DNA from: Malassezia furfur
Taxonomy: Eukaryota
Assembly (NCBI GenBank): GCA_052055015.1
Contig: JBQJIT010000016.1
Reading direction: 5' to 3' (one strand)
DNA: 64,000 nt
The notes under the pieces are model-generated. The model was not told where the DNA came from, ran no database searches, and saw nothing but the letters and a program-made list of their open reading frames with translations. The translations under genes were made by a program, and so were the position numbers. How positions within the stretch are numbered: position 1 is the first letter of the stretch; every line of letters begins with the position of its first letter. This document shows positions 2,417 to 62,398 of the stretch, one piece after another.

Positions 2417-3415
2417 GCGCGCGACGCCACGCCCAGCGCCTGCGCCGCGCCGTGCGCGAGCAGCCCGTGCACATGCGCCGTAGGGTGGTACAGGTCAAAG
2501 AAAAAGTAGCGATCCGGGTCGGCACACTCGTGCCGCGCCACGCCCGCGGCACGCTCGAGCTTTTGCGTGCCGACGAGGCACGCAGAGCGCGTGTTGTGCA
2601 CACCGTAGCGTGTCGGGTGGTCCAGAATGCGCGCCTCGAGCGCCGCCAGGTCCACCAGCGTCACGTTCGCCGTGCCGTCGTGCACCCACGTGCGCAGCGC
2701 CGCATTCACCCGGTGCGTAAAGTGCGTCGTGTTGGCACGCGTCGCCGCATCCGCATAGTCGAGCGCGTACGGCGTCGACTGCATCGGGCTCAGCGTCGGC
2801 ACCATCACATGGCGCGCGCCGTGGCGCTGCAGCCGCACGACGTCGCGCTGCAGCGCGTGCACCACGTCGTGCGCCAGCTCCGTCACGTTGCGCTCCGCAC
2901 TCAGCCCAAAGAAGGCATCGTTCGAGCCGCCCGACACAATGTACAGCGCGTCGCCGTCCGCATGCGCGTCGACGTGCGCAAGGTAGCGCGACACCTGCTC
3001 GCGCACGTCGGGCACGGGCAGCGTCGAGTTGTAGCCCGAGTAGCCGCGCGCAATGCGGTTGTCCGTCGTCGCGCTGCCGTACGCGTAGTCGTCGACGTGC
3101 GTCACGTTGAGCAGGCCCGCAAGCTGCTCAGGCCACGTCAGTCCGTTGCTGAAGCGCCCGCTGCGGTCAGTACGCGCGCCGCGCCGCCTACGCACTCGTA
3201 GTACGCCTTGTCCGCCGGCCACGTCCGGTTCGACAGCAGGTACGTCCCATTGCCCTGCGTCAGCGCCAGTCACGCACATTGTCCACCAAGGAGTCGCCAA
3301 ACACGACGACCCGCGAGTACGGCGCAGGCGTATTGTGCGCCGCGACAAACGGCACCTGCAGCGCGCCGCTCACGCACGCGGCGACCAGCGCCAGACCGGA
3401 CCAGCGCAGCACCAT
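2413..3415 (-). CDS. Secreted GDSL/SGNH lipase-esterase, 3 exons
   Basis: ATG 3415 gives signal-peptide-like [18 protein letters not shown] then [11 protein letters not shown]. Introns 3255-3277 (23 nt) and 3161-3195 (35 nt) join to GRFSNG, GGSND and FFDLYHPT blocks. Confidence 0.9.
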
Positions 3416-3455
3416 GGAGGCAGAAAAAGAAGGATGCACACCTATCTGTACAATG

Positions 3456-3922
3456 CTACACGGCAGAGCGGCGCACCCCGGCCAGCCGGTCCATCACCGT
3501 GCCCACGACCGGCATGGACAGCAGCTGGCCAACGCCGGGCACCTGCCGCAAAAAGTTGAGGATCACCGGGAAGAAGTCACTGCACGTCAGCCGCGCACCA
3601 CCTACCCAAACAGGTTCAAAAACCCGATCGTCTCGACCAACATCCCAAGGAACGTCAGCCGCAAAAACACGAGCACCATGCCCGTGAAGAAGCACAGCGT
3701 CCCGCGGATTTTTTGCTTGCGCGCGAAGAACGCGAGCGTACGCTGGGGGCCAATGAGCATCGCAATGCCTGCGACGAACAGCACATTGCCGAGCGCGAGC
3801 AGCGTCGCATCGAAAAAGAGCACCACGCCCAGGAACAGAAAAAAGACCCCGCCCGAGACTAGGCCGACGCCAATCTCTGCACGTTAGCGCACCCACGCAC
3901 TCTGCTGATCACTGAGCCACAT
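3456..3922 (-). CDS. GOT1: Golgi transport protein Got1, 3 exons
   Basis: Spliced product MWLSDQQKIGVGL...FFDATLLALGNVLF...GFLNLFGDFFP. Introns 3877-3900 (24 nt) and 3580-3605 (26 nt). Confidence 0.92.
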
Positions 3923-3959
3923 CGCCGTCGGGTCGACGTGTCGACGGCATATTTCCTCG

Positions 3960-5213
3960 TCACGCCGCACGCCGCGCACGCGCCGACGCAATAGGGTGCG
4001 TGTCGCTCACCACCACCTTGCCGGGGGGGTACGGCGACGCCGCGTTCGCAAACGTCGCAAACGCACTGCGTCAGCATCCTGCACGTACTTGGCCGTCGGC
4101 AGCGGCTCCTCCGCAAACCACGGGTGCTGCAGCGCCTGCGCCGCCGTGCATCGCCGTGCGGGGTCGTACTGCAGCAGCTTGTCCAGTAGATCGTAGCCCG
4201 CCGAGGTGCCCGCGCGATTCGTGTACCACTGATACAGCGTCTTGGGGATAGCATCGCCACGCCGTAGCGCATGCCACGTCGCATAGTCGGGCAGCGCATC
4301 GAGCATCGGCCACCGCTCGCGCGTCGGCGTGCCAAGAATGTCGACAATCTTGCCCAGCTGGTTGCTGTGTGAGTGGGGCAGCAGGCACGTACGTCTGCAG
4401 CGGCATCGCTTTCACCTTGGAGCTCATGCGGATCTCCTCACCTTTAAACATGGGGCGCAGCGCAATCAGCTCGCCCCAGATGCACCCGACCGCCCACAGA
4501 TCGATCGCGGGGGTGTAGTGCCGCGCGCCAAGCAGCAGCTCCGGCGCACGGTACCAAATCGTGACGACCACCATATCGCTCGCGTGCAGCGACACAAGCG
4601 GGTCGCAGTACACGCGCGCGAGGCCCAGGTCGCCGATCTTGACGACGCCGCGCGCGGTCATCAGGATGTTGGCCGGCTTCAAGTCGCGGTGCATCACCCA
4701 ATTTTCATGCAGGTACTGCACACCGTTGAGTACCTGCCACAGCAGCGACTTGATCATTGCGCCGCTGATCGGCGTACGCAGCACCGTGAGGTGGTGGTGG
4801 ATGATTTGCAGAAAGTCGTGCTCGACGTACTCGTACACCAGAAAGATGGCATTCTCCTCCAGCAGCACCTCGCGCAGCCAGACGACATTGTTGTGCCGTA
4901 GCTCGCGATTCAGGCCGATCTCACGGATCGCGCTCTGGCTGATACCGGTAAACGTCGTCGTGTTCCCCTCGCGGTCCGGCTTAAACTTCTTGATCGCGTA
5001 CACGCGCGGCTCGCGCACCGCACTGTTGGGCGGCAGCAATTCCTGCGCCTTGTACACGCGGCCGTACGTCCCGGAGTTGAGGAAACCCATCACACGGTAG
5101 CGCGCCAGGACAGGCGTACGCTGTGCATTGCGTCGCGCACGGTACGCACGCATAATGTCCGCTGCCGATGCCGACGCCGGCACCGGCACGGACGCCGCGC
5201 CGTCTTGGGGCAT
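3960..5213 (-). CDS. SSN3: Mediator kinase CDK8/Srb10, 3 exons
   Basis: SGTYGRVYKA, YAIKKFKPDREG, GISQSAIREI, HRDLKPANI, DLGLAR, VVVTIWYRAPELLLG. Introns 4365-4392 (28 nt) and 4066-4088 (23 nt). Confidence 0.93.
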
Positions 5214-5249
5214 CGAGCGCACAGACAGCCTCCACCTCCTTCTGCCACG

Positions 5250-6287
5250 ATGTCGGGGGGCTTCTCGATCGTGGATGCCTTCCACAATGCGCTGCGTGAA
5301 GACGACGAGCTGCCGCACCCTATTGCGGCAATCTTTGCGCTGAGCGAGATGATCGGCTCGTCCCAGGCAGAGACCACGTCGGAGCTGATGGAGAGCATTA
5401 AGCGCGCATCGGAGGAGCTGAAGAACAGCCTGCCGAACCCCATCCCGGCGTCGGCAGGCCTCGAACTGTTCATGCGGTTTGTCACGACGAAGAACTGGGC
5501 TGGCGGCGTACGTGTTCGTACTCACGCAGGACTTTGAAACGCACAAACAGAGCCTCATCACCACCGCGCTCGAGTTTGCGCACAACACCGTGCCGAGCTG
5601 CCGCGAGCGGATTACGGCGCTCCTTGTGCCGTTCATTAAGGACGATACGGTGATTCTCACACACGCCTACTCGCGCGTTGTGATGCAGGTGCTGCTTACC
5701 GCGGTCAAGACGCACCGCAAGCGCATCAGCGTGTACGTCACGGAAAGTCGGCCGTCTGAGCATGGGTACGTTTTTTTATGGGCGTCTAACCTAGCTTGCG
5801 CACCTACCATGTGCTGTCCGAGGCGGGCATCCCGTGCACGGTGGTGCTTGACTCTGCCGTCGGTTACATTATCCACAAGGTGGACATGTGCCTGATCGGC
5901 GCCGAGGGTGTCGCCGAGTCGGGCGGCCTGTTCAATGCGATCGGCAGCTACCAGCTCGGCGTGATTGCCAAGGCGGCATGCAAGCCCGTGTTTGCCGCCG
6001 CAGAGAGGTACGTCGCAATGACTCACGCCAGCTTCAAGTTCCTGCGCATGTTCCCGCTGTCGCAGTACGACGTGCCGCTCTCGCACAAGATGCTGCCCTT
6101 CCCCACCAAGGCCGAGATGGAGAAGCACGTCGAGGCACAGGAAAACATGACCCCGGCGATGGAGGCCCTCAACCCTTCGTTCGACTATACCCTGCCGGAG
6201 CTCGTGACGTTCATTGTGAGCGACATCGGGATCCTGACGCCGTCGGGTGTCTCGGACGCGCTGCTCGCCGTGTACGGCGGCGCATAG
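5250..6287 (+). CDS. GCN3: Translation initiation factor eIF2B alpha subunit, 4 exons
   Basis: ILTHAYSRVV, VYVTESRP, GAEGVAESGG, AAES/FKFLRMFPLSQ, GILTPSGVSD. Introns 5508-5529 (22), 5766-5794 (29), 6008-6031 (24). Confidence 0.93.
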
Positions 6288-6332
6288 TGCATACATAGCG
6301 ACCTCGCCCTATGTGTCTACTTCGGCGCACGC

Positions 6333-8810
6333 TCAGCGGCGCCCTCCTTTTTTGCCGCCGCGCGCACTCGGTTTGCTCGGCTTGCCGGCGCCGCCCTTGG
6401 ACGGCTTGCCCCGCGCGCTGCTCATGTCGCGCCCAAACGCGCCGCCCTTGTCGCTGGAGCGCAGCTCGGTCGAAATTTTGCGCTTCTTCGGCTTGCTCGG
6501 CTTGGCCTTGTACTTGGGCTCGTTCACGCCAAGCTCCTTGGGGCGCTGCGCACGCTTCGCGGCGCGGATGCTTGCATCGATCTCGCGTGAATTGTTCTCC
6601 TTTGCGTCCTCCTCACGCATGAGCTTGAGCCGCTTCTGCCGCCGCGACAAGCCCGCAAAGCGGTCCTTCTCCTTGGCCTTGCGCTTCTCCGCCGCGCGCG
6701 CCGCATCCATCTTGGCGACGTACTCCTCGCGCGACGCGCCCTTCGACTCCGCCTTGTCCTTCTCGCTCTGGAACCAGGTGCGCGCAGGGCGCGAGTAGAT
6801 CTCATCCTGGTGCGCCAGCATATTCTCGCTCTTTTGCATCTGCATCTCGGCCTGGCGCAGCGCACGCTCCTCTTTCTCTTCGGCAATCACCTCCTCGATG
6901 TCCGATTTGAGCGCGTCGATCGCCGTGCTCATCTTCTGCACCGCCTCGGCGGGGACCAGCCGGTGCTTGACCTGCTCCGGCGGCGTGCGCTTCAGCACCG
7001 CCTTGAGCAGACGACGGTCTGCCTCGCCCACCAGCGTCACCGAGCGGCCCTGGCGCCCGGCACGCGCAGTACGACCGACACGGTGCAGGTAGGGCTCGAG
7101 CTGTGCCGGCATGTCGTAGTTGATCACGGTCTGCACGCCACGGATATCGATACCACGGCTTGCGAGATCCGTCGCAAGCAAAAAGTCGACCTTGCGGTCG
7201 CGGAAGTTGGTGAGCGACTGCAACCGCTGTTCTTGCGACAGGTCGCCGTGCAGCTCGGCAGCCGACAGGCCTAGTAGGCCAAAGATGATCTTGAGCTGGT
7301 GCGCAAGCCGCTTGCTGCGCACAAAGATGATCACCTGGTCCCGGAACGTGCGCATACACAGCGCCAGCAACAGCGCCGCCCGCTGTGCGTCCTCAGCGGC
7401 CTTGCGCTCCGCCGCCGAGCCGGTCGTCGGCGCACGCACACGCACAAACTCTTGGGTAAGCTTGGCGGCCGTCGAGCGCTTCGGGTCGACAAACAGACGC
7501 ACAGGCTGCCGCAGGCTCAGGCGCACGAGCTGATCGACGTCGTCGGTCATCGTGGCCGAGAAGAGCATCGTCTGCCGCTGCTGGGGGCACGAGCGGACGA
7601 TCTCGTTGAGCTGGTCCTCGAACCCATCCTCGAGCATACGGTCGGCCTCGTCCATGACCAGGATCTCGATGTCGTCCAGTCCGAACGACGAGCTGTTCTG
7701 CACGTGGTCAATCAGACGACCGGGCGTCGCAATTATAATGTCAGGGCGCGTCTTCAGCTCGGCCTCTTGTGCCTTGACGGAGAGACCACCCACACACAGG
7801 CAGAACCGCACCTGCATGTATTGTGCCAGCGCCATACCAACGCTGTGGCACTGGATCGCCAGCTCACGCGTCGGGCAAAGAATCACGACGCGCGACTTGG
7901 CGTCTTCGACGCCCTTTTGCCGGTACGACAACCGCTCCAGAATCGGAATCAAAAACGCCGCGGTTTTACCACTGCCCGTCACGGCGCCGGCCACAATGTC
8001 CTTGCCGGCGAGCGCAATGGGAATCGTGCGCGACTGGATCGGCGTGGGCTTCTGGAAGTTCATCGCACTCAAAGCGCGCAACAGCGCGCGGTTCAGACGC
8101 AGCGCAGAGAACGACGCCATAGGCGCCTCAGCAGATGGCTCCTCGGCCGCAAAGTACTGCGCCTTGCGCTCGGCGTCCGCGTCGTCCTCGTCGTCGTCAT
8201 CGCTGTCGTCCTCGTCCTCTTCCTCCTCTGATTCGGACGCATCTTCGTTGTCTTCGGCATCGCTGGCGTCCTTGTCGTCCTCAAGCGGGTCCTCCTCGCT
8301 GTCTTCTTCTTCTTCTTCTTCGTCACTGGCTTGGTTCGCCCGGGCACCGGTACCGAACCCTTCGCCCTCGCTGCTCTCGCTCTCGTAGTCAGGTACATCG
8401 TCATCCTCTTCCTCATCTTCTTCCTCTTCCTCCTCGTCGAGCTCAGGCAGGCGCGGCTTTACATCCGCACGACGCCGCTCAATGATATCGTCCACTGTGA
8501 GCCGCGATGCCTCGGCGCTGTTCGCACCGTTCGCACGCGCCACATGAAAGTTCCAGTCCTGCGGGTTGTTGTCGTCAATACCGTCGTCAAATTCAAACTC
8601 GGCGCCCATCTCGAGCACCTCGTCGTCGTTCTGGCTCGGCTTCCCAGTGTCCACAACCTTTTCCCGCGCATTGATACTGGCTTTGGTACCCTTCTTCTTG
8701 GGTACCACTTCTTCCTCCTCGATAGGCTCCTCGGGAACCTCATCATCGGAGTCCAGCGTCATGACAAAGTCATCGCGCTTGGCGCGCGGCTCGCGCGCTT
8801 TCGACACCAT
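6333..8810 (-). CDS. DRS1: DEAD-box RNA helicase Drs1/DDX27 (60S biogenesis)
   Basis: Acidic N-terminus, AVTGSGKTAAF, PTRELA, DEADRML, SAT, HRVGRTARAG, RPARTWFQSEK. Likely ATG at 8810. Confidence 0.93.
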   Translation of the reverse strand: MVSKAREPRAKRDDFVMTLDSDDEVPEEPIEEEEVVPKKKGTKASINAREKVVDTGKPSQNDDEVLEMGAEFEFDDGIDDNNPQDWNFHVARANGANSAEASRLTVDDIIERRRADVKPRLPELDEEEEEEDEEEDDDVPDYESESSEGEGFGTGARANQASDEEEEEEDSEEDPLEDDKDASDAEDNEDASESEEEEDEDDSDDDDEDDADAERKAQYFAAEEPSAEAPMASFSALRLNRALLRALSAMNFQKPTPIQSRTIPIALAGKDIVAGAVTGSGKTAAFLIPILERLSYRQKGVEDAKSRVVILCPTRELAIQCHSVGMALAQYMQVRFCLCVGGLSVKAQEAELKTRPDIIIATPGRLIDHVQNSSSFGLDDIEILVMDEADRMLEDGFEDQLNEIVRSCPQQRQTMLFSATMTDDVDQLVRLSLRQPVRLFVDPKRSTAAKLTQEFVRVRAPTTGSAAERKAAEDAQRAALLLALCMRTFRDQVIIFVRSKRLAHQLKIIFGLLGLSAAELHGDLSQEQRLQSLTNFRDRKVDFLLATDLASRGIDIRGVQTVINYDMPAQLEPYLHRVGRTARAGRQGRSVTLVGEADRRLLKAVLKRTPPEQVKHRLVPAEAVQKMSTAIDALKSDIEEVIAEEKEERALRQAEMQMQKSENMLAHQDEIYSRPARTWFQSEKDKAESKGASREEYVAKMDAARAAEKRKAKEKDRFAGLSRRQKRLKLMREEDAKENNSREIDASIRAAKRAQRPKELGVNEPKYKAKPSKPKKRKISTELRSSDKGGAFGRDMSSARGKPSKGGAGKPSKPSARGGKKGGRR

Positions 8811-8950
8811 CGCTGCAAGGCGACTCCTCCACGCGCCCAAAAAAAATGTGGACGAAGCCGTCACGTGGCGATCGGGCGAGTCGGCCTGGGGACCCGCGGG
8901 TTGCTGCAGGTACGGTCTTCGATCGTAGTCGTCCGACTCATAACCCCAGC

Positions 8951-10480
8951 ATGACCGATCTGGGCGCGACCTCGACGTCCCCACCCAACTCAGCAGGATC
9001 GGCCCCACGCCGGCTCGGACAGATCCTACGGAGGTACAGTGTCGGTCAAAATTCTTCGCAAATGTCCACATCCCCGCTCGGGGATGCCGCAACGGCCCTC
9101 GGCACCAGCCCCCCCACATCGCCGGCTCGGCCGCGCTCGCGCCGGTCGTCCGAGGGACAGGGAAGCTCGTCGTCGATACCGCTCGGTGTGCGACTCGCGC
9201 CGCTGCGTGCTGCCGCAGCCTCCGTGTTCGGCTCGAGCCGAAATGCGACCAGCAGCGATGCGTCGCAGTCGGCCTCGGCCACTAGCAACTCGCCCACGCC
9301 GTCGCACCCACTGCAGGACTCGCACAGCGAAGGAAATACCTCTTTGCCTAACACGGTGGGCGCAACGCACAAGCTGCGCCTCGTGCCGTTCTTGGACATG
9401 ACTCGCTCGCTGCTGTTTGTCCCCACCGAAATTGAGCTGCGTGAAAATGGTCACGCTGTCCAGTTGGGCCGCTTCACGGAGCGCAGGCGTACCGATACCC
9501 AAGCGGAAGTCGACACGACGGCGCCGGCCGTCGAGGTCTCGACGGCCGAGCCTCTCCCCCCGGCGCTCGCAGAGGACCAAGCGGCGACTACTGCCCGTGC
9601 GTCGGCAGCGACGGTGAACCGGCAGCAGTCGCGCATCAACTTCAAAAGCAAGGTCGTGAGCCGACTCCACGCAGAGATGTGGTGCGAGTCGGGTGGCAAG
9701 GTGTACATCCGCGACACGCGCTCCAGCAGCGGGACGTTTTTGAACCATTTGCGACTATCGCCACCGGGCACGCTCAGCCGGCCGTTCGCGCTGAAAGACG
9801 GCGACGTGCTCCAGTTTGGCATCGACTACCAAGGCGGTGTGCAAGAGCTGTACCGCTGCATCAAGCTGCGCATCGAGCTTGACCACGACACACGCCTGCA
9901 GCCCACGGCGTACGGCGCCAATATGCTCCGTCAGCTGCAGTCCATGCAGCCGGTGGCCGAAGCCACCGGTGCCAACGCACCCACGATTGGGATCGTGCCG
10001 CCGCCCGCGGAAGATGCGTCCCGGACGCCCGCAGTGCAGGCGACCTCCCGCGCAAGCCTCGCAGAATGCTGCATCTGTCTCTTCAAAATCAAAGTCTGCC
10101 AGGCACTGTTCATCGCACCTTGTTCGCACATGTTCCATTACAAATGCATTCGCCCGATCCTCACGCTGCACCACCCGGGCTTCTCGTGCCCGCTGTGCCG
10201 CGTGTTTGTCAACCTCGACGACGACGTCGAGATCGAAGAGGAGGAGGAGGCAGAAGACTGCCTGGTGGTCACCGACATCCAGCCTTCGCCTGCGGGCGGC
10301 GCTGGAACGCCGCTCTCGAATGTCGCCTCGGAGCATACCGAAGATACCTCGGGATCCATCGGCGAAGTGCATTCCGCACCGACGTCCCCGCTGCAGGCAT
10401 CGTTTAGCGACGTGGCGGCCAGCACCCAGCCTCTAGACGCGATCGCCGAGCAGGACAGTCCGGCGCTCGGTCCTTCGTAG
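8951..10480 (+). CDS. DMA1: FHA plus RING-H2 E3 ubiquitin ligase Dma1-like
   Basis: FHA motifs FKSKVVSRLHA and RDTRSSSGTFLN, GIDYQGG. RING CCICL...PCSHMFHYKC...CPLCR. Confidence 0.9.
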   Translation: MTDLGATSTSPPNSAGSAPRRLGQILRRYSVGQNSSQMSTSPLGDAATALGTSPPTSPARPRSRRSSEGQGSSSSIPLGVRLAPLRAAAASVFGSSRNATSSDASQSASATSNSPTPSHPLQDSHSEGNTSLPNTVGATHKLRLVPFLDMTRSLLFVPTEIELRENGHAVQLGRFTERRRTDTQAEVDTTAPAVEVSTAEPLPPALAEDQAATTARASAATVNRQQSRINFKSKVVSRLHAEMWCESGGKVYIRDTRSSSGTFLNHLRLSPPGTLSRPFALKDGDVLQFGIDYQGGVQELYRCIKLRIELDHDTRLQPTAYGANMLRQLQSMQPVAEATGANAPTIGIVPPPAEDASRTPAVQATSRASLAECCICLFKIKVCQALFIAPCSHMFHYKCIRPILTLHHPGFSCPLCRVFVNLDDDVEIEEEEEAEDCLVVTDIQPSPAGGAGTPLSNVASEHTEDTSGSIGEVHSAPTSPLQASFSDVAASTQPLDAIAEQDSPALGPS

Positions 10481-10558
10481 GCATTTGCTACATCGGCACC
10501 CCGCGGCGCGGGTGTGTCGTTCCTAATGACATTGTATACCATCCGACTCGTCTATGAA

Positions 10559-11731
<1,173 letters not shown>

Positions 11732-11774
11732 GGCGGCCAAAAAATGGCTTACGTCAGTCCAACATGCACGCAGT

Positions 11775-34004: not shown

Positions 34005-34042
34005 GACCGGGGCGCCCGGGCGGGGGCACATTGGACTCCAAC

Positions 34043-42936: not shown

Positions 42937-42937
42937 A

Positions 42938-50778: not shown

Positions 50779-53700
50779 ATGTTTGTGCGTATCCGCTGAG
50801 ATGACGTTGTTTGTTACTAACACACCTCCAGTGGCGTTTTGGCGTGGCTCCGGTCTCGACACTGACCACGCTGCTGGAAAAACCTGATATTACCGTCGAG
50901 GATGTGTTGAACGAGCCCGACCTCCTGCAGGAATGCAAGTCGAACAACCACAAACTCGTTGCATACCTCCAGCAGCCTGAGGTCCTTCAGCGGCTGCTCG
51001 ACTACGTCATCGGCGCTGTGGAAGTGGAAGATGTCTCGGACAGTTCCAACCAGGAAAAGATTGCCTTCAAGTACGTCCCAAGTCGTTGTCGCGCATACTA
51101 ACCACAGATATCCCTACTTTGCTTCTGAGGTGCTTAGCAGCGAGATACCCGAGATCTCCCTGGTTCTCTTTCAAAACGCACAGGCGCTGCTCGCGCCCTT
51201 CTGGGATAATTTCCTCTCCACTCCCTCGGATGCATTTGAGCGGCCCATGCCGCTGCATGCCCATCCCCTCACTTCGGCAACCTACGTCAAGTCGGAGGTG
51301 GGCGGCCCTAGCGATGACAACGAGGAGAAGAAGCAGGAGGAGAAGTCGACCGGCGAGACAGTCAAGTACTCGGGCCGCTCGCATGGTCCTGGGCACACGG
51401 TGTTGGCTGGGTACTGGTCCAAGGTGAACATGGCGTTGCTTGAAAAGCATCCGCAGGAGATGCTGGCGTTTGTGCAGACGCTGCCGACAGCCGTCGAGGG
51501 GCTTGTGTCGCACTTTGAGACGTCGTCGGTAGTCGACCTCTTGTTCCGCCTGATCCAGACGGAAGATTCCGTGCCGGATGCCGGCATCATCCAGTGGTTC
51601 GCCGACAACGACCTGATTGCGCGTATCGTGGCGCTACTGTCTCCGCATGTCTCGACCGAGCAGCACAAGGCGGCGGCCGAGTTCCTGAAGGCGATCATCT
51701 CGCTGTCGGCGCCGTCGCCCTCGGCCCTCAACCAAATTACCATGCAGGAGACCTTTGGCGGACCGGGCGAGATGCTGATGGGTGCCGGTGGTGTCAACAA
51801 CCTGCTGGTGCGCGAGCTCGCAAGCGAGGAGACGGTGAACAAGATGACCTACTTCATGCTGGACTTTAAGCCGACGTTCAAGCCGTTTGCGAGCGGCAGC
51901 GGCTCCGAGGGCGCAGCGTCGCGCAAAGCATCGATGCGTGGCACGCTCGACTCGTCGCTGCCTGCGCTGCGCGAATCGCTCTCATCGGATGAGTCGGCGG
52001 TCGAGGAAGAAGAAGACGACGACGATGATGACGAGTGGCAGTTGCGGCTTAGTTTCAAGAACCGCCGCATGTCGCTCGCGCAAGGGATGAACGGCGGCCG
52101 CGGCCCGGCGCACCGCGACTCCACGGCGACGGTGCGCCCCTCCGACCTACGCCGCGACAGTATTGTGCGGCAGGGCCCCTCGCAAGCCGCCATCACCTCG
52201 TCATTCACCAACTGTGCCGGAGTGTTTATCGAGTTGATCCGCAAAAACAACAGCGACTACTTTGAGCAGCACCTGTTCCACACGCTGCGCAACTACCTGC
52301 TCCTCCGGCAGCAGGAGGTCTCTGGAAAGCGCCAGCAGGAGCGCCTCGCGCAAAAGACGGCCGAGGGGCAATCGGACAAGCAGGACCTGACGCTGGAGGA
52401 CCTTCCATTCGAGGACGACGACGACGTTGAGGGCATGGAGGAGGCCATGGCCGAAGTCGCTGAAAAGATGGGCATCGTCCACCTTGGCCCGCTGCTCCAG
52501 GTTCTCTCTAACAGGATACCCGATTTGCAAGAGATGATGAAGAGCCCCAAGTTGGCGGTGCCGTTTGTCTCGACGACTCTAGGCCAGATTGAGCCGCTCA
52601 CGCAGACGCGCTACTGCATCGCCGAGCTCTACGCCGAGATGCTGCACTGCTCCAACATGGTCTTACTCAACCGCGAGCCCAATGTCGGGCCGCAGTACTC
52701 GCCAACAGGCACGCTGCTAGGCGGCATCGAGGGCCTTCAGCGGCTCGCGCGTGCGCTTCAGGGAGACGACGGCGGTCCGCTGTTTGAGTCGAACGAGCCG
52801 TCGAGCAGCGCCCCGCAGCACAGCGCCCCGCAGCCTGAGCTGCACGTCGAGTGCTCGGACGACGACGAACCGCCCGCCGGGGTGCCGACCACCTCCACTT
52901 CGAGCGACCGGCTGGCGGCGCCGCAGCCGGGGAGCGCCAGCGGGCACAGCAGCGAAGGCGAGTCGTCCGACTCGGAGGCTGACAACGCCGCGGACGATGA
53001 GGACGCCAAGAGCATTGCGTCAGCGCTGTCGAGCATGTCGCTGGCCGACCTCACGGCGCAGTTTGCGAGTCGGCCGCCGAGTGTCAACGACGACCACCTG
53101 TATGCGACGGTGGGCGACTACCTGAAAAAGCAGTTCTACGACTTCCAGGTGGTGCCGACGCTCGTCGAGCTCTTCTTGAACCATCCGTGGAACAACTTCC
53201 TGCACAACGTCGTCTACGACATTATCCAGCAGCTCTTCAACGGCGACATGGACGCCGGCATCAACAAGAAGCTCACCATCGCCACGTTTGAGCAGGCCGG
53301 GCTCATCGACGCCATCCTCGAGGGCTCGCGCCGCAACCAAGAGTCCAGCAGCCAGCTGCGCCACATCCGCCTCGCGTTCATGGGCCACCTCAATCTGATC
53401 GCCGAAGAGGTCATCAAGCTCATGGAAAAGTACCCCGCGGCCGTCGGCGAAAAGGTCAAGAACTGCTTCCCGCAGCCCGATTGGGACACGTTCGTGAACG
53501 ACGAGCTGCGCGTGTCGCGTGTCAAGGAGGCCATGCCGCTCGCCGGTGGGCGCCCCAACGCCAATGCCAGCAACGACCAGAGCTGGAACAAGGACTCGGA
53601 CAACTGGTATGCGGACTCCGAGGGGAACAACACTTTCGCACGCTACCTCTCGTCGCAGATGCGCAACGAGTCCACGGAGGACGAGGCGCAGGAGAACGAC

Positions 53701-54396: not shown

Positions 54397-54649
54397 TACA
54401 CGTCCCCCGCAGGCGAAACGACGTAACGCCGACCCACTTCCCTCCACCTGCCGCGATGCGCACGCGCACGACGGGCGATGCAATCCGCACGTATGCAGCG
54501 AATGACCGTCCGTACCCCACTCGGCCGAGACGGAGATTACCGGGCGGGAGGTGAGATCGGACTGCTTCAGCGCGCAGTTAGTTACCCCGCAGAGCGGTTC
54601 GGTAACTGTGTACAAGAATTACCGGGGTTTCTTAGTTTCCTGCATCATC

Positions 54650-55834
54650 ATGACGAACGCATTCATTGTTGGCTCGAAGCGCACGGCATTTGGCTCTTTC
54701 GGTGGCAAGCTGAGCCAGATCAACGCTGCTCAGCTTGGTGGCCACGCCGCCAAGGCTGCGCTGGCTCAAGCTAAGGCTGATACCCCCATCTCGTCGACCG
54801 TCTTCGGTGTGGTGACCCAGTCGGACTCTACGACGCCCTACCTCTCCCGCCACGTCGGCCACCACGCCGGCCTGCCCATCACGGTGCCGGCCCTCACGAT
54901 CAACCGTCTGTGTGGCAGTGGGTTCCAGGCGGCGATCAACGCCTTCCAGGAGATCAAGAGTGGCGACTCCGAGGTGGTGCTCACCGGTGGCACGGAGAAC
55001 ATGAGCATGTCGCCCTACACGCTCCACGGTGTTCGCTTTGGTAACACGCGCTATGGCGTCGACCTCAAGCTGGCGGACAGCCTCGCGAGCTCCCTGGTCG
55101 ACCAGGTGCCCGTTCCTACCCCTATGGGTGTCACTGCTGAGAACCTCGCCGTGAAGTACGGCATCACGCGCGAGCAGTGCGACCAGTTCGCGCTCCAGTC
55201 GCAGCAGCGCTGGGCCGAGGCGAACAAGAACGGTGCCTTCAAGGACGAGATCGAGCCTATCGAAGTCAAGGTGAAGAAGGCCACTGAGACCTTCGAGGTG
55301 GACGAGCACCCGCGCGCGAACGCTTCGCTGGAGTCGCTTGCGAAGCTGCCCCCGGTGTTCAAGAAGGACGGTGTCGTGACCGCCGGTAACGCGTCGGGTA
55401 TCTCGGACGGTGCCGCGGCCAACGTGATTGCCAGCGAGGATGCGCTCACGAAGTACGGCCTCAAGCCCCTTGCGCGTATCGTTAGCTACGGTGTGACGGG
55501 CTGCGAGCCGTCGCTCATGGGCATTGGTCCCGTCGAGGCCTCGCGTGTGGCTCTCAAGCGCGCGGGTCTGACCATTGCTGATATGGACCTGATCGAGGTG
55601 AACGAGGCCTTTGCTGCCCAGTTCCTCGCGGTCCAGAAGGAGCTCGAGCTGCCTAACGACAAGACGAACATCAACGGTGGCGCTATCGCGCTCGGTCACC
55701 CGCTTGGCGCCAGCGGTGCCCGCATCATGGCGAACCTGACCTACAGCCTGCACCGCCTCGACAAGAAGTACGCTCTTGGCGCGGCCTGCATTGGTGGTGG
55801 CCAGGGTATCGCGGTTGTCCTTGAACGTGTTTAA
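54650..55834 (+). CDS. 3-ketoacyl-CoA thiolase (ACAA2-like)
   Basis: NRLCGSG, NEAFAAQ, GHPLGASG, CIGGGQG. Confidence 0.93.
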   Translation: MTNAFIVGSKRTAFGSFGGKLSQINAAQLGGHAAKAALAQAKADTPISSTVFGVVTQSDSTTPYLSRHVGHHAGLPITVPALTINRLCGSGFQAAINAFQEIKSGDSEVVLTGGTENMSMSPYTLHGVRFGNTRYGVDLKLADSLASSLVDQVPVPTPMGVTAENLAVKYGITREQCDQFALQSQQRWAEANKNGAFKDEIEPIEVKVKKATETFEVDEHPRANASLESLAKLPPVFKKDGVVTAGNASGISDGAAANVIASEDALTKYGLKPLARIVSYGVTGCEPSLMGIGPVEASRVALKRAGLTIADMDLIEVNEAFAAQFLAVQKELELPNDKTNINGGAIALGHPLGASGARIMANLTYSLHRLDKKYALGAACIGGGQGIAVVLERV

Positions 55835-55995
55835 ATAGCTCTTGGAATCGCCTCGACTTGAAAACCTGAACAGATAAGAAAAGCAAAATGAGCTCGTGCG
55901 AAGACGCTGGCGGGCAGAGCGGGGTAGGCTTGGCAGCACAAAAAACGGATGCGACACGTTCTAGAGCGATCTTCTGAGGAAAGAGTCTCGAGATT

Positions 55996-56085
55996 GACTT
56001 TATAACTCAGTTGGTTAGAGTACCACGTTAACAACGTGGAAACGGAATTCCGTGGAAGTCCCCGGTTCGAGCCCGGGTAAAGTCA
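55996..56085 (+). tRNA. tRNA-Val(AAC) with a probable 16-nt intron (56034-56049)
   Basis: Acceptor GACTTTA/TAAAGTC plus A73, D arm ACTC/GAGT, anticodon stem CCACG/CGTGG with AAC at 56030-56032, T arm CCCGG-TTCGAGC-CCGGG. Confidence 0.9.
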
Positions 56086-56095
56086 TTCTTTTTTT
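56086..56095 (+). terminator. RNA polymerase III oligo-T terminator
   Basis: TTCTTTTTTT immediately after the tRNA. Confidence 0.75.
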
Positions 56096-56114: not shown

Positions 56115-58879
56115 CTATTTTTTAGCGTGCGACCCGGCGAGTATGTCTTTCCAAGCCAGCAGAACTTGGAGGGTATCACGATCTGCTGGGTCGTCTTGAG
56201 GTTGAGAATGCTGTTCATGAGCACGAATCCATTCATAGAGGGTGGATGAGACCACATTCGTGGCTTCATTCGCATAGTCGTGCGAATGGGGTACGCCAAG
56301 GTCCAGCAGCCATTCTGCATACTCCAGCTTGTTTTTCCGGCACTGCTCATTGGGTAGCGGGAATGTGGCCGAGCGCGAAAAAAGATGCTGTGCCCAAAGG
56401 AACAGTGGCATCGCAAAGGCTTGCATGGCGACCGTAGGGTTGTGCAATTTGTCCGAAGGCAGGAACATAATGTTCCGAAAGTTTTGCAGGAAGGTGAATG
56501 CCCCGCCACAGTCTTCCAGTGTGGAAGTAGCCTCGTTAGGTGTAGAAATACAGGACAGCAACTGTTGCAAAGACGTCTCCAGCATCGAGATATCGCGGAC
56601 AATTTGCACCTTTTCGTCTTCCTCGTGCAGTCGGATCAAGGTCACGAACAGAAGGAAAGCCCGCAAGACAAACTGCACCAAATCTTTCACTGCCGTCTTG
56701 ACCTCGTCTAAAGCCGTAATACGGTTCAGAACGCCGTTTCGGAGCGACGTGAGTCGTGCGTGCAACTCCAACATATATGTACTCACTGGAGCTTTGTTCG
56801 GATGGGCTCCTGGCGCCGCTCTTGCCTTTTCGAGCTTGAACCGGGACATTCGTGCCAATACGCTCACCAGCTCAGCTTGAACCGACCGACACAACGGATC
56901 CATCAGGTCCTGGTGGAGTATACGGCTCGCCGTTCGTTCCCATTCCAAAGCCTGTTCAGAAACGTGGGCGTGAAGCGAATCGGAACGAGCGCGAAGGTCT
57001 TGTAGAAAGGCGATTAACACAGCCATCACAGCTGCATTTTGCAACTGCTGACGTGGGGGCTGCGGTTTTTGAAGTGTATACGCCAAGTCGTCGCGCGAAA
57101 TTTGGGTACTCAGGTCGACGAACATAGCATTTACCGCAGAAGAAAGTGTCTCGGCCACCCTGCTCGCCAGTCGCTCATCGGTAGCACATGCGCTGGACTC
57201 GGTCGTAACAATGCGCATCAGGGCGTGAGTCAGCGCAGGTGTGTCAGCCGCACTGCTTGGGCTGGACAGGAGGGTATGCACAAATTGTCGTCTCTCGCCC
57301 AATTCCTGGGTCACAGTCCGCAAGTACGACTGTTCAAGTTCGCCCAGCAGAGAGAGTACAGATTTGGGCCAATCCTCGTAGCCTGTCGGCACAGACGACT
57401 CGTCTGTTAGCAGTGCGATTCTCGCGAAAAGCTCCTTGAAGATGGCCAGCAGGTGAGGGTAGGTCGAAGTCACAATGAATCGCCAAAAGTCGGACTCCTC
57501 AATGCACTCGTGCACAATCATGCGAAAGTTGCGCGCAAAAGACATCCATAGCAGGTCAGTTGGCTTTTCGTGCAATTGCTGCGTAAGTATTCCGACATAC
57601 GTGCATCAAGGACTCCTGGAGTGTCGCGCCTGACTTGCTGGTATGCTTGGAGCGCAGGACATACTCGAGCATGTTAATCTTGGTAAAAATGGGTGCCATC
57701 TCATCGACGATTAACGAGCGCAGCTGCGTCCATACGCCCGATGTCCACTGTTGCAGGAGTTGTGCATCCTCGGCGGTCAGTGCACGGTCTGGAAGTTGGT
57801 AATGCATCGAGAGCAACGTCTTGAAGGAGAACGATGGTGGCTGGGCTTTCCCGAGCCCCTTGCCAATGGTGTACAAATCCAAGGCCGAGCGGATGCGCTC
57901 GAGCAAGACGGCATTGAGGTCCTCGATGAAGTTCTCGACCAGGCGCGCAAGCTGGTTGCGATGTTCGGCTGCCTGAAGCGCAAGACCGAGAAGCGCGGGC
58001 GACAGGTTCCGAAGACCGTACAGTAACGTATTCTCGACCTGCTCCTGGAGCAGCTGCGACGCATCCGGCAGCAGCGCCAGGTGCGGCGCAAGAAAGTCGA
58101 GCTGTACACAGTCCTCCCGTAGCTGTTTGTCCAGTTCGTCCTCATCTTCCCAAGGCTCGAGCAATTGCTCCAACTGCTCCAGTGTGATGCAGGCAGACAG
58201 AATGTGGGTCGCCTGTTGCTGCATTAACTTGGGATCTTGTCCGGAGCCTGCCGCTTCCGAGCCAAGAATGGTATCCATCTGAGAAGACAATCGTGTGCAC
58301 AAAGCAATCATCTCTTGTGCACGAAAAACGAGCTCTTCTCTCTCCTGCAGCGCTTCGAGGTGCGTTTGGTTTTCTTCGATGCGCCGAAGAGACGACGTGA
58401 CATTCGAGCGTGCGCTGCGTCAGTTTCCATCGCACGTACGATTTCACACGGTGATGAAGCTTGTTAAACTCTTGCAAGATGTCAGACACAGAGTCACGAA
58501 GAGGCGCGACGTTGGTGATGCGCTCCAGGAACTGCGTCGAATGCAAGGTGATCTGGGATGAGATTCGCACTTACCAGACCATGAATGTCCTGGTCGACCT
58601 CAGTGATGGACACATTCAAGCGGCTCAGTGCAACACGCATGTCTGTGTCAACTGATGCTACGCGGTTCGAGACATCCAGCGTGTTCTCCGACGCCGACCC
58701 CGGGTCCTGGGGCTGCGCCGGCGAGCTCAGAAACTGACTCGCGTACGTTTGTGCATCAAAGTCATCGCGCAGAAATACAGCGTGGTCTGCGTAAGTAGAT
58801 TTCACCTACCGAATGAGCCAGATCCGGGCTTCGCCGGGGCCGAGCTTTTCTCGGAGTGGGCCAAGCTCGTGTCGGCCAT
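56115..58879 (-). CDS. COG5: Conserved oligomeric Golgi complex subunit 5, 5 exons
   Basis: DHAVFLRDDFDAQTYA...ALSRLNVSITEVDQDIHGL, FWRFIVTSTYPHLL. Introns 58787-58809 (23), 58553-58574 (22), about 58415-58439 (25), 57579-57600 (22). Confidence 0.78.
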
Positions 58880-59045: not shown

Positions 59046-59566
59046 CTATGCTGGGGCGCCCGGTGCTTGCTTTGACCGGCTTTCAATTTCGCGCTGAATC
59101 AGCTCCTCCTGCCATTTCTGGATTTCCCTCTCGCTGGCAACGATCCCGCGCTGGCCCAGCTCGCGCATGGCGCGGTTCCGAATGAGGTTATCATGAGTAC
59201 GCTTTTCGTATTCGAACCGCTGCAGCGCGGTCTCGGCGGCAAACACCAACCCGATAGAAGCCGCTGTGTAAGTGTATAGACGTGCCTGACATAGTCAAGA
59301 ACGCTTTAAAGGCCAGCGTCTGGCGTCTTCATCATAAGTAGACCGACGTACCGGAACGAAGGAAAGATGTGGTGCGACGCGAAGACACCGGTAAAACCTA
59401 CGAAGCCCCACACCAAGGCTCCGCGAATGCCCGCACGCTGCATGAGCCACGCATTGCTCTTACGTACCACCTGGACCTGATGCGCATTTTTGACGTTCTC
59501 CTTATCGAACTGTCTCCGCTCTCGGTGGGTGAGCAAACCAGACGAAGACGACCCCCGCGAGTCCAT
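59046..59566 (-). CDS. Conserved-looking small two-TM membrane protein (weakly HIG1/Rcf-like), 4 exons
   Basis: Spliced GIRGALVWGFVG...FPSFRRQTLAFKAFLTMSAASIGLVFAAETALQRFE. Requires a GC-AG third intron. Confidence 0.65.
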
Positions 59567-59667
59567 CGCGTTCAACGTAGATCCGATCGGAGTAGCAACT
59601 CAGGGCCGGAGGCACGAATGTGGAGAAAAATGCGCCGAAAAAAAGTCATCCGGAAGCCTGCATCATT

Positions 59668-60521
59668 ATGGGCAGCTCGAAGAGTGGTGCGAATTCGAGC
59701 AGCGTAGTGGTGTCGCCAGGTACGTGATCTTTTCCTAACCAAGACGCCCTGCGGCTGGTGTATTCCTTTCTCTATACGCATGCGAAGCCGAAGCTTGCGT
59801 CCAAGCTTGCGGATCAATACCCTAAGCTGAATTTGGAGGAAGACGCGAGTCGCGCGGAGGAGCTGTCGAACGCGCTCGTGCACACGGTGACCAGTGCGCT
59901 GGCGGTCCCCAACTCTGAAATTGCCAAGGCGCTGAACGGGGAGAAGAAGAAAGCGCGCAAGTCGGAGGAAAAGGAGTCGAAGAAGTCGAAGAAGGCCAAG
60001 GTACGTGTGCGAGATTGACCGCAGAAGAATGACGACACACCTGCTCCCGTGGTCGAGGAGCCCGATGCGGCGAATGAGTCTGTCATGCAGGTGGACACCA
60101 CGGAGGCACCTGCGACGGCGCCCGAGACGGTCGCCGAGGTGTCGGTGACCGAGTCGCAGCCGACGGGCGAGACGGTCGTTACGGAAACTGTGCGCACTGA
60201 GGCCCCGAAGCCTTCCAAGAAGACGAAAACGCCAGGCGAGCGCTTCCAGCGGGTTAAGTCGGACCAGGCGACGTTCCTAGACGACCGCTTGCGCGATATG
60301 AGCTATGCGGCCAAGGTACGTGATGTGCTTATGCAGTCGGGTGCGGGTGACTATGGAGCGCGTGCAAATGCCGACCTGATCGTTACGCAGGGCAAGGCGT
60401 TCACGAAGGAGAAAAACAAAAAGAAGCGCGGAAGCTATCGCGGTGGAATTATTGACCAGGGGTCCCAGTACGTGTATGCACTTACACCAGCTCCATCAAA
60501 TTCACGTACGATGACGAATAA
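59668..60521 (+). CDS. SRP40: Srp40/Nopp140-like nucleolar protein, 5 exons
   Basis: LisH-like LRLVYSFL, C-terminal ERFQRV...YGARANADL...GKAFTKEKNKKKRGSYRGG...SHSIKF. Introns of 24, 24, 21 and 23 nt. Confidence 0.9.
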
Positions 60522-60527
60522 TTGTCG

Positions 60528-62398
60528 TCACATGGCGCGCTCGGTGCGCTCGCCGTGGGCTATCGCCTCATCCCACATGCCAATCTCGAGTCGAGTGGCC
60601 CTGTGTGAGTAGTCATCACGTACGTGTTCCATATTTCCTGGAGATGGTCCGTCTCTTCCACCGACGGCATCACGCGCGCGGCGCAGCGCTCGAGCATCTC
60701 CAGGGTAGACCGGACTGCGCCTTGGAAGTCGTCTCCACCGTATTCATCCAACCACGCCTCGTAGCTGGGGTCACGCGGGCCGCTCGGGGTGGGGTGCCGC
60801 TGGCGCTGCTCCTTGAGCCAGAGACCCACCTCGGCGTACCCAAATGCACACGACGCGACCGACACGAGCAGCGGGAGAATGCCTTCACGGGCCATATCCA
60901 TCACGTAGCGCGTGTAGGCCATCGTTGCGCGACTCTCTTCGGTGCGCTCGAGCTCGTCACGCGGAATGCCCGCGCGCTCACACACCGTCGCATGTACACG
61001 TGTCTCGTCAATGGCAGCCCGCGAAATAGTGAGATAGTCGCGCAAATCTTCCGGCGAGCACGTCGGATCGGAAGCCGCCGCGGCCCACACGCGGGCATAG
61101 TGCTTAAGGTACAGATAGTCTTGCCGCATGAACCACACGAACGCCGCCTTGGACAGCTTGCCTTCGCACATGCGCGCCACAAACGGATGGCGCGTGTACA
61201 AGTGCCACAGATGCCACGAACGCGCAATAAGTTTGGTTGCGAGCGGCGCCGCACACCGCGCTGTATGCATGGGAATGCCGCGCGGCATGATGTGCGAGCC
61301 ATGATTAAGCGGCCCCGCACCCTTGCCAAGGTCCTCGATGCTGCTCTGCAGCGCCTCTTGCAGAAACTGGAGGCCGTGCGCCACGGCGACCCGCAGCGGA
61401 AGTCCGTGCGCATGCGCCGCACAGATCGCCGACGACAGCGTACACCCCGTGCCGTGCGTTGCGCTTGTCGAGATCGTCGGCTTAATGAACACCGTCGTGT
61501 GCTGCGTCGCAGACTCGTATAGCACGTCGACCGTGTAGGAGGATGGGCCGACGTCAGGCAGGTTGCGGCGTAGGACACGCATGTCGCTGGGGCCACGTAC
61601 GAGGAATACGTCAAGCCGTGGCGCTTGGAACGCAGATGCACCCAGCACCTGTGCAATGTCACTACGTTCGCTGCGCTCGACGCGCGTAGAGAGTGCCGCC
61701 GTGCCGTGTGCATCGCGCGTCGTCGACACGCGCGTGTCGCTGAAACCGGCGATCGCTTCGTCGTCGGTGCATAGCGGAAGCGAGACACCCGCAGCTCGGA
61801 GCGACTCTTGCAGATCGTCGTGTGCAATGGGAACGTGTCCGCCCTTGACGAGTACGTTGGCGACGCCCAGGCGCGCAATGGACTGGGCCGAGGCCATCAT
61901 CTTGGCAAGGTCATTCGTCGCAGCTGGCGGGGTTACGCCGGCGTTCTGGAGGATCGCGTCGGTCTCGGGCAGATTGGGGGTGAGCAGCGTACACAGCGGA
62001 AAAAGTCCTTCGATCAGCGCGCCGATTGCGTCGCGTTGGAGCAGGAGCGAGCCCGAGGTCGAGACCATCACGGGATCCAACACGACGGGCACGGCGTGCT
62101 GCTTCTGCCACGCGGCGATGCATTGTATGACCTCGCGAACGATGGGCGCATTGGCAAGCATCCCAATCTTGATGGCGTCGATGCGCACATCGGTCGCGAC
62201 CGAGTCAAACTGCGCACGCACAAACGCCGGGTCGGGCGTGTGGACGCTCTGTACGCCCTGGGTGTTTTGGGCGGTGAGCGCGGTCAGCACCGACATGCCG
62301 TACGTCTGCAGGGCAAGGAACGTCTTGAGGTCCGCTTGGATCCCGGCGCCACCGCCGGAGTCGGAGCCCGCGATGGTCAGTGTGCGCGGAAGGGCCAT
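60528..62398 (-). CDS. THI20: HMP/HMP-P kinase fused to TenA thiaminase II (Thi20-like), 2 exons
   Basis: [62 protein letters not shown] after a 23-nt intron at 60601-60623. Confidence 0.9.

Follow-up and report, generated by a model that had tools for sequence, protein, structure and literature searches.

Ultra-short GT-AG introns with an apparent 21-nucleotide minimum in a 64-kb window of Malassezia-clade DNA

Introduction

Ultra-short introns test the minimum of RNA that a spliceosome needs, and the question of where that minimum lies is raised by a 64-kb stretch of Malassezia-clade nuclear DNA (contig JBQJIT010000016.1; the whole of this stretch is referred to below as the window). An earlier note on this DNA had described more than 35 spliceosomal introns of 21-26 nucleotides (nt), with none shorter than 21 nt, and had taken their compactness to imply a modified spliceosome. 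Fifty GT-AG introns are placed here in the window, and they are very probably ordinary U2-type introns of a GC-rich yeast of the Malassezia clade, compacted to little beyond their three recognition elements.

The window is gene-dense with a GC content of 52-69%, and corresponds to a basidiomycete yeast of the Malassezia clade, a placement indicated by the best named protein matches. The product of KRR1 is 82% identical to its best named match, from M. yamatoensis, with Malassezia sp. CBS 17886 (80%) and M. cuniculi (74%) as further best named matches in the same search. The best named match of CDC43 is from M. vespertilionis, and an RRN6-like protein is 88% identical to a protein of M. brasiliensis and also matched M. 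nana.

Identification and number of the introns

A simple motif scan first showed GT...CTNAY...AG segments piled up at 21-27 nt on both strands. Joining of open reading frames (ORFs) over all GT..AG pairs, together with segmentation by codon usage and by GC content at third codon positions (GC3), was too noisy in GC-rich DNA, and motif, frame and homology were therefore used. Each candidate intron, consisting of a donor hexamer, a branch-like motif and AG, was deleted in silico and the long ORFs that emerged were recorded. After deletion, 19 multi-exon genes have complete and recognisable products: a GDSL lipase, Got1/Sft2, a CDK-like kinase, GCN3/eIF2B-alpha, KRR1, an SNF2-family helicase, CDC43, RLI1/ABCE1, an SPX-RING protein, SGF29, the RRN6-like protein, a short coiled-coil protein, a LACTB2-like hydrolase, DBR1, a fatty-acid desaturase, SAPS, COG5, an SRP40_C protein and THI20. 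The first-pass list of 51 candidates became, after corrections, a final list of 50 introns, and by our own tally of the gene inventory ~21 of the ~35 protein genes in the window have at least one.

The introns have a median length of 24 nt and a mean of 27.0 nt. The shortest are 21 nt long, and 37 of the 50 fall between 21 and 26 nt (eight of 21 nt, seven of 22, seven of 23, eleven of 24, one of 25 and three of 26); six more are 27-30 nt, six are 35-48 nt and one is 88 nt. With 50 introns in 64 kb, these values show the short-intron architecture of Malassezia (a mean or median intron length of up to ~30 nt, ~1 intron per gene). The count bears out the earlier figure of more than 35, and the four examples that had been singled out, in KRR1 (11653-11673, minus strand), CDC43 (16071-16091, minus), SGF29 (27075-27095, plus) and GCN3 (5508-5529, plus), are found at those coordinates and with those letters. 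The extent of the phenomenon agrees likewise, the first introns lying at 3161-3195 and 3255-3277 and the last at 60601-60623.

Several lines of evidence identify these segments as introns. The full pattern, GT[AG]NGT followed by 0-15 nt, CTNA[CT], 0-4 nt and the first AG, occurs 45 times on the two strands of the window, as against a mean of 4.86 (standard deviation 2.08, maximum 10) in 100 dinucleotide-preserving shuffles, a nine-fold excess. Thirty-four of these matches are introns in the 19 ORF-restoring models and three are introns that were added later; the eight left over are close to chance expectation, and include a nested alternative, antisense matches, a 15-nt hit in malate synthase and candidate sites in a stretch of lower GC content. 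Among the 45 introns of the first models, 25 have a length not divisible by three, and an in-frame stop is present in 14 of the other 20, a feature that had been reported for several of them. Adding 32542-32571 and 59264-59351 to these 39, a total of 41 of the 50 introns must be removed if the frame is to be open.

Twenty-nine of the 50 junctions are independently confirmed, by orthologue alignment, by colinearity with Pfam profiles or solved structures, or by syntenic relatives. All eight 21-nt introns are among them, three by comparison with a single predicted M. brasiliensis protein and one by profile colinearity alone. Pfam positions run from exon to exon in GCN3 (three junctions), SGF29, DBR1, COG5, SRP40_C and STEEP1. 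The syntenic relatives are four metagenome loci (L001-L004) with collinear gene order, representing two relatives of lower GC content (48-49%), and for 16 introns in 3161-18324 the intron is either missing from these loci or of another length at the same codon. Absent introns, with the flanking peptides colinear, are those of the lipase, GCN3 (three introns, L001-L003), SNF2 and RLI1 (three introns, L002/L003); resized introns are those of KRR1 (25 nt), CDC43 (29, 26, 30, 35, 25 and 47 nt) and Got1 (28, 29, 60 and 64 nt). The window intron is the shorter one at seven of the nine sites shared with L004 and at six of the seven shared with L001-L003, and the shortest intron in the four loci is 25 nt. 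By every test short of RNA, these DNA-level comparisons confirm the segments as real introns.

Motif anatomy

All 50 introns begin with GT and end with AG. G is present at position +5 in every case, T at +6 in 48 and A at +3 in 42, with C at position -3 in 48. A [CT]TNA[CT] branch motif is present in all 50, with its A located 5-11 nt from the 3' end. At the donor site the consensus reads (A/C)AG followed by GTACGTG, and at the branch (A/G)CTNAC, after which comes YAG. The earlier description of the motifs is partly retained: GTRYGT donors account for 41 of the 51 first-pass candidates (33 of the 51 being GTACGT, mostly with G next), the listed branch motifs CTGAC, CTAAC, CTCAC, CTTAC and CTGAT occur, and so does the YAG end. 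It was too narrow in two respects, as GTAGGT and GTAAGT donors are also used and the branch motifs extend to CTCAT, CTTAT, TTGAC and CTAAT.

The absence of a polypyrimidine tract had also been described, and none of the metazoan type, which is not universal, is present between branch and acceptor in the 50 introns, because no more than 3-9 nt of sequence is available from branch A to AG. Such a tract is also missing in other compact-intron lineages, and its absence is therefore no bar to U2-type membership. Judged by their signals, which are conventional, these are U2-type (major) GT-AG spliceosomal introns, and the adenosine of CTNAY is the predicted branch point.

A minimum of 21 nt composed of two limits

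The position of the putative branch A within the intron is 16 in 10 of the 50, 17 in eight, 18 in 10 and 19 in eight, and it is never earlier than 16. The short donor-to-branch distance proposed in the earlier note is recovered here as 16-20 nt in 38 of the 50, by arithmetic on the predicted branch A. On the other side, 29 introns have this A 5 nt from their 3' end and 10 have it 6 nt away, and the distance is never less than 5 nt. The floor of 21 nt is the sum of these separate minima (16 + 5) and therefore splits into two limits; all eight 21-nt introns have the form of hexamer, 6 nt, CTNAY, 2 nt and AG.

Both limits have an abrupt onset. Spacers of 0-5 nt between hexamer and branch motif give two matches, as compared to ~1.8 expected by chance from the shuffles, while spacers of 6-10 nt give 37 matches as compared to ~1.4, with nine at a spacer of 6 nt, eight at 7 nt and 11 at 8 nt. 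Among the same 45 matches a single one has 0-1 nt before the AG and 28 have 2 nt. Neither the length nor the spacer distribution tapers at its lower end, both starting at or close to the mode, which argues for a real limit within this sample. In addition, an AG lying 3 nt after the branch A is passed over in favour of the next AG in the intron at 32542-32571, in KRR1 of L001-L003 and in the first Got1 intron of L002/L003; in the KRR1 and Got1 cases the choice of site is fixed by the conserved protein.

No intron shorter than 21 nt survived among the candidates scanned in the 64-kb window, as the earlier note had claimed. A 16-nt GCN3 intron (5514-5529), nested within the 22-nt one, is rejected by colinearity with solved structures and by the four intron-less relatives, which give the same junction; with the 22-nt intron removed, the exons meet between residues 98 and 99 of Schizosaccharomyces pombe eIF2B-alpha (5b04_A) and between residues 85 and 86 of the yeast protein (6i3m_A). 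Three in-frame candidates of 15 or 18 nt in the two malate synthase genes (47536-47550, 45628-45642 and 45250-45267) lie within near-ungapped Pfam profile matches, and another candidate below 21 nt (11351-11367) lies within a continuous KRR1 alignment. For an 18-nt candidate at 62988-63005, which has a 1-nt spacer, homology gave no decision.

We regard it as unlikely that the introns are real but the 21-nt floor is an effect of sampling a single window, with shorter introns present elsewhere in the genome. Fifty introns are a small sample, the annotators of M. restricta permitted 15-nt introns in AUGUSTUS and so thought shorter ones possible (PMC6473144), and an 18-nt alternative remains at 32550-32567. 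However, eight introns are at exactly 21 nt and nine matches have a spacer of 6 nt, as opposed to two matches, at chance level, over all spacers from 0 to 5 nt; moreover, the one shorter candidate that could be tested, the 16-nt one in GCN3, was rejected, and proximal AGs are skipped in three cases.

A conventional or a modified spliceosome

Read as ordinary U2-type introns in compact form, the introns each consist of a donor hexamer, a linker of 6 nt or longer, a branch motif (A/G)CTNA(C/T), at least two bases and YAG, and the two minima would represent geometric limits of the conventional catalytic core. The linker would have to reach from the donor/U6 helix as far as the branch/U2 helix, and the 3-nt loop from branch A to AG would be the tightest turn that lets the AG fold back to the active site for the second step.

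Several considerations weigh against this interpretation. Splicing as drawn here is deduced from DNA and homology, and branch points are assigned from the motif alone. Nine introns are multiples of three in length and lack a stop, of which three (21948-21971, 32166-32189 and 59438-59467) are identified by motif alone or by a weak profile match, and several RRN6-like junctions depend on one predicted M. brasiliensis protein, which is a mis-fused model. The floor is drawn from 50 introns in 64 kb, and rare shorter introns may occur in a genome that has several thousand. The geometric rationale comes from published spliceosome structures. Lastly, the branch A of Stentor is at position 10, so that 16 nt is not a universal minimum and the 6-nt linker needs a lineage-specific reason; strong donor and branch motifs of fixed length would be one possible reason of this kind for the 16-nt minimum.

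The earlier note had proposed instead that the introns, though real, need a modified spliceosome, the usual E and A complexes being unable to form and early assembly or branching factors having been lost, truncated or reshaped in the lineage. The spacing gives this proposal some appeal, as the branch A is at position 16-19 in 36 of the 50 introns, and U1 on bases 1-6 and U2 on approximately bases 11-17 (~7 bases around the branch A) leave ~4 unpaired bases. In Stentor, too, conservation is absent from those parts of the branching factors Cwc25 and Isy1 that reach into the active site, and a small reduction in size is seen in many proteins of the spliceosome (PMC9505925). Nonetheless, we give it little credence. 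With introns of 15-16 nt, Stentor has all of the small nuclear RNAs (snRNAs) together with the majority of core proteins, the changes in branching factors being local (PMC9505925), and myxozoans, with a median intron of 22 bp, keep a canonical U2 branch-binding region as well as U2AF1/2 (PMC13644364). The content of the window is silent on the makeup of the spliceosome, with one tRNA as its Rfam match and no snRNA gene, but its donor and branch motifs are strong and conventional, and its DBR1 is ordinary by Pfam.

A similarly doubtful extension of the two-part limit is that it would bar the textbook prespliceosome, with U1 and U2 together, from a single intron, so that assembly would take another route, such as a handover without co-occupancy or altered bridging or branching factors. 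If this were true, a culturable and transformable yeast would provide the first genetic model for minimal-intron splicing.

Introns in the left part of the window (3161-18324)

It is scarcely credible that the segments are not introns at all but in-frame insertions, assembly frameshifts or decayed genes carrying GT...AG. Nine of them are, it is true, stop-less multiples of three that would read through, and at the SGF29 site a 21-nt segment is indeed read through in the predicted protein of a relative (P0245). Against this, the motif is in nine-fold excess over shuffles, 41 of the 50 shift the reading frame or introduce stops in otherwise conserved essential genes (KRR1, RLI1, GCN3, CDC43), the spliced proteins align gap-free with orthologues, and relatives lack the segment or have it resized at the same codon. 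Individual introns are described below from left to right in two groups; those with lengths that are not multiples of three are termed frame-breaking, and those that are multiples of three and lack a stop are termed open.

The GDSL lipase gene (minus strand) has an intron 1 of 23 nt (3255-3277), which introduces a stop if retained, and an intron 2 of 35 nt (3161-3195), which is frame-breaking. Both are absent from L002-L004, with the flanks abutting exactly at the first and colinear at the second. In the Got1/Sft2-like gene (minus) intron 1 (3877-3900, 24 nt, in-frame stop) corresponds to introns of 28 nt in L002/L003 and 64 nt in L004, and intron 2 (3580-3605, 26 nt, called from frame and a stop) to introns of 29 nt in L002/L003 and 60 nt in L004. 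Both introns of the CDK-like kinase gene (minus) are frame-breaking: intron 1 (4365-4392, 28 nt) is 25 nt long in L002/L003 and 51 nt in L004, with the Pkinase profile resuming in the next exon, and for intron 2 (4066-4088, 23 nt) the orthologue mapping is ambiguous.

Three introns are present in GCN3 (eIF2B-alpha; plus strand). Intron 1 (5508-5529, 22 nt) is residue-exact against both 5b04_A and 6i3m_A and is absent from L001-L004, where its flanks abut. Intron 2 (5766-5794, 29 nt) is colinear with the IF-2B profile and absent from L001-L004, and intron 3 (6008-6031, 24 nt, open) is exactly colinear with IF-2B, absent from L001-L003 and 39 nt long in L004. KRR1 (minus) contains a single 21-nt intron (11653-11673) with an in-frame TAG, and a 25-nt intron occupies the same site in L001-L004. 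Its spliced junction is gap-free with 11 of 12 orthologues, ranging from Malassezia to Schizosaccharomyces and chytrids, the other (P0007) diverging upstream. The intron of the SNF2-family helicase gene (12237-12259, plus, 23 nt, in-frame stop) is absent from L001-L004, where the flanks are colinear at low identity.

All three CDC43 introns (minus) carry in-frame stops. Intron 1 (16071-16091, 21 nt) corresponds to introns of 29 nt in L001-L003 and 26 nt in L004, and its junction is gap-free in 12 of 13 orthologues, namely those that cover it, as P0130 begins just downstream. Intron 2 (15934-15957, 24 nt; 35 nt in L004) is gap-free against most orthologues, with M. vespertilionis P0125 having a short gap just downstream of the junction, and intron 3 (15863-15886, 24 nt; 25 nt in L001-L003 and 47 nt in L004) is gap-free against Malassezia orthologues. 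RLI1/ABCE1 (minus) has longer introns: intron 1 (18277-18324, 48 nt, in-frame stop; 46 nt in L004), intron 2 (18168-18204, 37 nt, called from frame; 44 nt in L004) and intron 3 (18056-18090, 35 nt, called from frame; 54 nt in L004). All three are absent from L002/L003, with the flanks of intron 3 abutting.

Intron presence thus differs among Malassezia lineages, with the three GCN3 introns, the two lipase introns and the SNF2 intron absent from the lower-GC loci L001-L003, and the three RLI1 introns absent from L002/L003 and present in L004.

Introns in the right part of the window (21948-60623)

The putative SPX-RING intron (21948-21971, minus, 24 nt, open) is identified by its motif and by a weak SPX match of the upstream exon (E 0.15). 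SGF29 (plus) has three introns. Intron 1 (27075-27095, 21 nt) carries an in-frame stop and is gap-free with all but one of 10 homologues. In the exception, P0245, seven additional residues are inserted precisely at this site, which suggests read-through of a stop-less 21-nt intron in another species. Intron 2 (27513-27535, 23 nt, frame-breaking) is colinear with the SGF29_Tudor profile and with homologues, with no indel or a small one, and intron 3 (27717-27746, 30 nt, in-frame stop) is gap-free with homologue P0253.

The RRN6-like gene (plus) has seven introns, six of which are gap-free with at least one Malassezia homologue, the seventh being in a variable region. Four are 21 nt long: 29513-29533 (open; gap-free with M. 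brasiliensis P0243 only), 29644-29664 (open; gap-free with M. nana P0242), 29870-29890 (in-frame TGA; gap-free with P0243, with eight additional residues in M. nana) and 30210-30230 (in-frame stop; gap-free with P0243). The others are 30346-30367 (22 nt, frame-breaking), where the alignment is variable, 31011-31034 (24 nt, open), which is gap-free with three of three homologues, and 31147-31168 (22 nt, frame-breaking), gap-free with P0243. At the start of the gene (29338-29512) the reading frame that matches the M. nana N-terminus lacks an upstream ATG, and a further short first exon and intron may exist.

The short coiled-coil gene (DUF2205-like, minus) contains intron 1 at 32246-32267 (22 nt, frame-breaking), intron 2 at 32166-32189 (24 nt, open, motif only) and intron 3 at 32108-32133 (26 nt, called from frame and a stop and otherwise from the motif). 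In the LACTB2-like metallo-beta-lactamase gene (plus), intron 1 (32542-32571, 30 nt) has an in-frame TGA between exons in the same frame, and its proximal AG is skipped. The upstream exon weakly matches residues 9-29 of 4ad9_A (E 0.3), and the downstream exon has no match in PDB or Pfam. Donor quality, frame and the weak upstream match make the 30-nt form the likelier one; an 18-nt alternative, the donor of which is poor, is less likely. Intron 2 of this gene (32768-32789, 22 nt) is frame-breaking.

DBR1 (39065-40614, plus), the gene for the lariat-debranching enzyme, itself holds two short introns, one of 24 nt (39071-39094) that follows a 2-codon first exon and is called from an in-frame stop and the motif, and one of 26 nt (40335-40360, frame-breaking), at which the DBR1 C-terminal profile is colinear within one position. 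The fatty-acid desaturase intron (41663-41686, plus, 24 nt) has an in-frame stop, and the FA_desaturase profile resumes in the next exon; the intron of the STEEP1-domain gene (43152-43178, minus, 27 nt) is open, with the spliced STEEP1 profile colinear within one position. The SAPS (SIT4-associated) gene (plus) again has a 2-codon first exon, followed by an intron of 47 nt (50785-50831, in-frame stop, otherwise motif) and a second intron of 37 nt (51071-51107, frame and stop).

COG5 (minus) has four introns, at 58787-58809 (intron 1, 23 nt, in-frame stop), 58553-58574 (intron 2, 22 nt), 58415-58439 (intron 3, 25 nt) and 57579-57600 (intron 4, 22 nt). The last three are frame-breaking, and the COG5_C profile is colinear within 1-2 positions at intron 4. 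A small gene on the minus strand contains an open 30-nt intron identified by motif only (intron 1, 59438-59467) and the longest intron found, of 88 nt (intron 2, 59264-59351), which joins two coding frames and has a 3' end built on the same plan (CTTAC-ACAG). The SRP40_C-domain gene (plus) has introns at 59720-59743 and 60001-60024 (introns 1 and 2, both 24 nt with an in-frame stop), at 60316-60336 (intron 3, 21 nt, open, SRP40_C colinear within 1-2 positions) and at 60468-60490 (intron 4, 23 nt, frame-breaking), the last with a nested 17-nt alternative that has a 1-nt spacer. The THI20-like intron (60601-60623, minus, 23 nt) is frame-breaking.

Other features of the window

Several further candidates of 21 nt or more were rejected. 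At 62493-62532 (40 nt, GAG acceptor) an uninterrupted ORF is present without splicing and would be broken by it; 59268-59294 (plus) is antisense within the 88-nt intron; 32561-32585 (minus) overlaps the plus-strand LACTB2-like intron; and 26709-26733 (minus) and its antisense partner 26713-26739 (plus) have no gene context. A segment of ~52% GC at 42300-43000 has no recognisable ORF but has intron-like matches on both strands (e.g. 42487-42511 and 42601-42631 on the plus strand), and may represent a transcript that is not annotated, either non-coding or with multiple introns.

Introns are lacking in the genes where GC3 and codon bias are strongest, and most are located in weakly biased genes. 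The strongly biased genes are those for SEC24, beta-COP, enolase, an insulinase-type peptidase, malate synthase and thiolase, with spans of 2-2413, 22250-25141, 33953-35374, 35447-39025, 46993-48711 and 54506-55831. The two malate synthase genes (45134-46759 and 46993-48711, both minus) are arranged in tandem and both are intron-less, the second with a much stronger codon bias. A tRNA-Val(AAC) gene (55995-56086, plus) is 92 nt long as compared to a 71-position model, and probably holds a tRNA-type intron.

Consequences for annotation

Genes of this kind are missed or wrongly joined when gene finders and aligners are run with their default minimum intron sizes. The STAR aligner by default counts gaps below 21 nt as deletions, and reads mapped in this way could mimic a floor of this very length. 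The public M. brasiliensis model P0243 (1,125 residues) fuses SGF29, a PNRC-motif protein and the RRN6-like protein, which correspond to 26863-31982 of the window, and omits ~150 residues of the RRN6-like protein as well as a portion of the SGF29 Tudor domain, apparently a mis-annotation brought about by tiny introns. The read-through in P0245 is another example, as is the treatment of M. sympodialis as intron-poor in a fungal survey, with Cryptococcus (63 bp) as its short-intron example (PMC8476143), despite the 5,350 introns of the former.

Comparison with known systems

Very short introns are a known trait of the genus, seen here in an apparently more extreme species. In M. sympodialis, 5,350 introns with a mean of 30 bp are reported in 4,493 genes, 99% of them supported by RNA-seq (PMC5389616, Table 2), and M. 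restricta introns have an average of 37.2 and a median of 30 bp (PMC9241646, Table 1), with annotation settings that allowed a minimum intron length of 20 and a min_intron_len of 15 (PMC6473144). A review refers to the 'very short introns' of Malassezia genes (PMC7426719), while older annotations gave mean introns of 65-79 bp. Both species resemble the window in having very short GT-AG introns at ~1 per gene, although their published introns are longer than those described here, and in the sections covered the papers give no donor or branch consensus, spacing rule or stated minimum. A 2026 paper on the shortest animal introns names ciliates, microsporidia and dicyemids as the exceptions below ~30 bp, with no mention of Malassezia in the part used here (PMC13644364).

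The phenomenon is already on record for the genus, and it is therefore refined and extended here, not discovered; the novelty claimed in the earlier note is weakened for very short Malassezia introns as such, but the 21-nt floor and the spacing rule were not met with in the literature searched. In that literature, which did not extend to subscription journals, no description was found of a Malassezia intron floor, branch spacing or spliceosome inventory. The present analysis contributes an explicit rule, by which the branch A is at position 16 or beyond, the tail has 5 nt or more and proximal AGs are skipped, together with corrected gene structures. In most lineages of this type, such as ciliates and myxozoans, the branch point is hard to see; because donor and branch motifs are both explicit in the window, the 16- and 5-nt minima can be read from DNA.

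Introns in Yarrowia lipolytica and in Giardia and Trichomonas have a branch motif almost fused to the 3' AG and no pyrimidine tract, as in the window, but are much longer overall, so that the likeness is confined to the 3' half. Those of Paramecium are AT-rich and have no yeast-like branch consensus, unlike the window introns. Their mean of ~25 nt genome-wide, however, is similar (PMC5014332; bioRxiv 10.1101/2021.08.05.455221). Myxozoans and dicyemids, with a median of 22 bp, fall in a similar length class and have a missing or minimal pyrimidine tract (PMC13644364), but they are obligate parasites with a weakly conserved A-run as branch site, whereas the window has an explicit branch motif and belongs to a culturable yeast.

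Stentor coeruleus provides the closest comparison at the 3' end. Its GT-AG introns are likewise at a hard length limit and lack a polypyrimidine tract, and their branch A is the 10th base of a 15-nt intron or the 11th of a 16-nt one (PMC9505925), and thus 5 nt from the 3' end. They are nearly all of one length and have a branch region without a strong consensus, in contrast to the 21-88 nt, the strong CTNAY and the branch A never before position 16 in the window. The 5-nt tail is the same in the two, and by this analogy hints at a shared limit for the second catalytic step.

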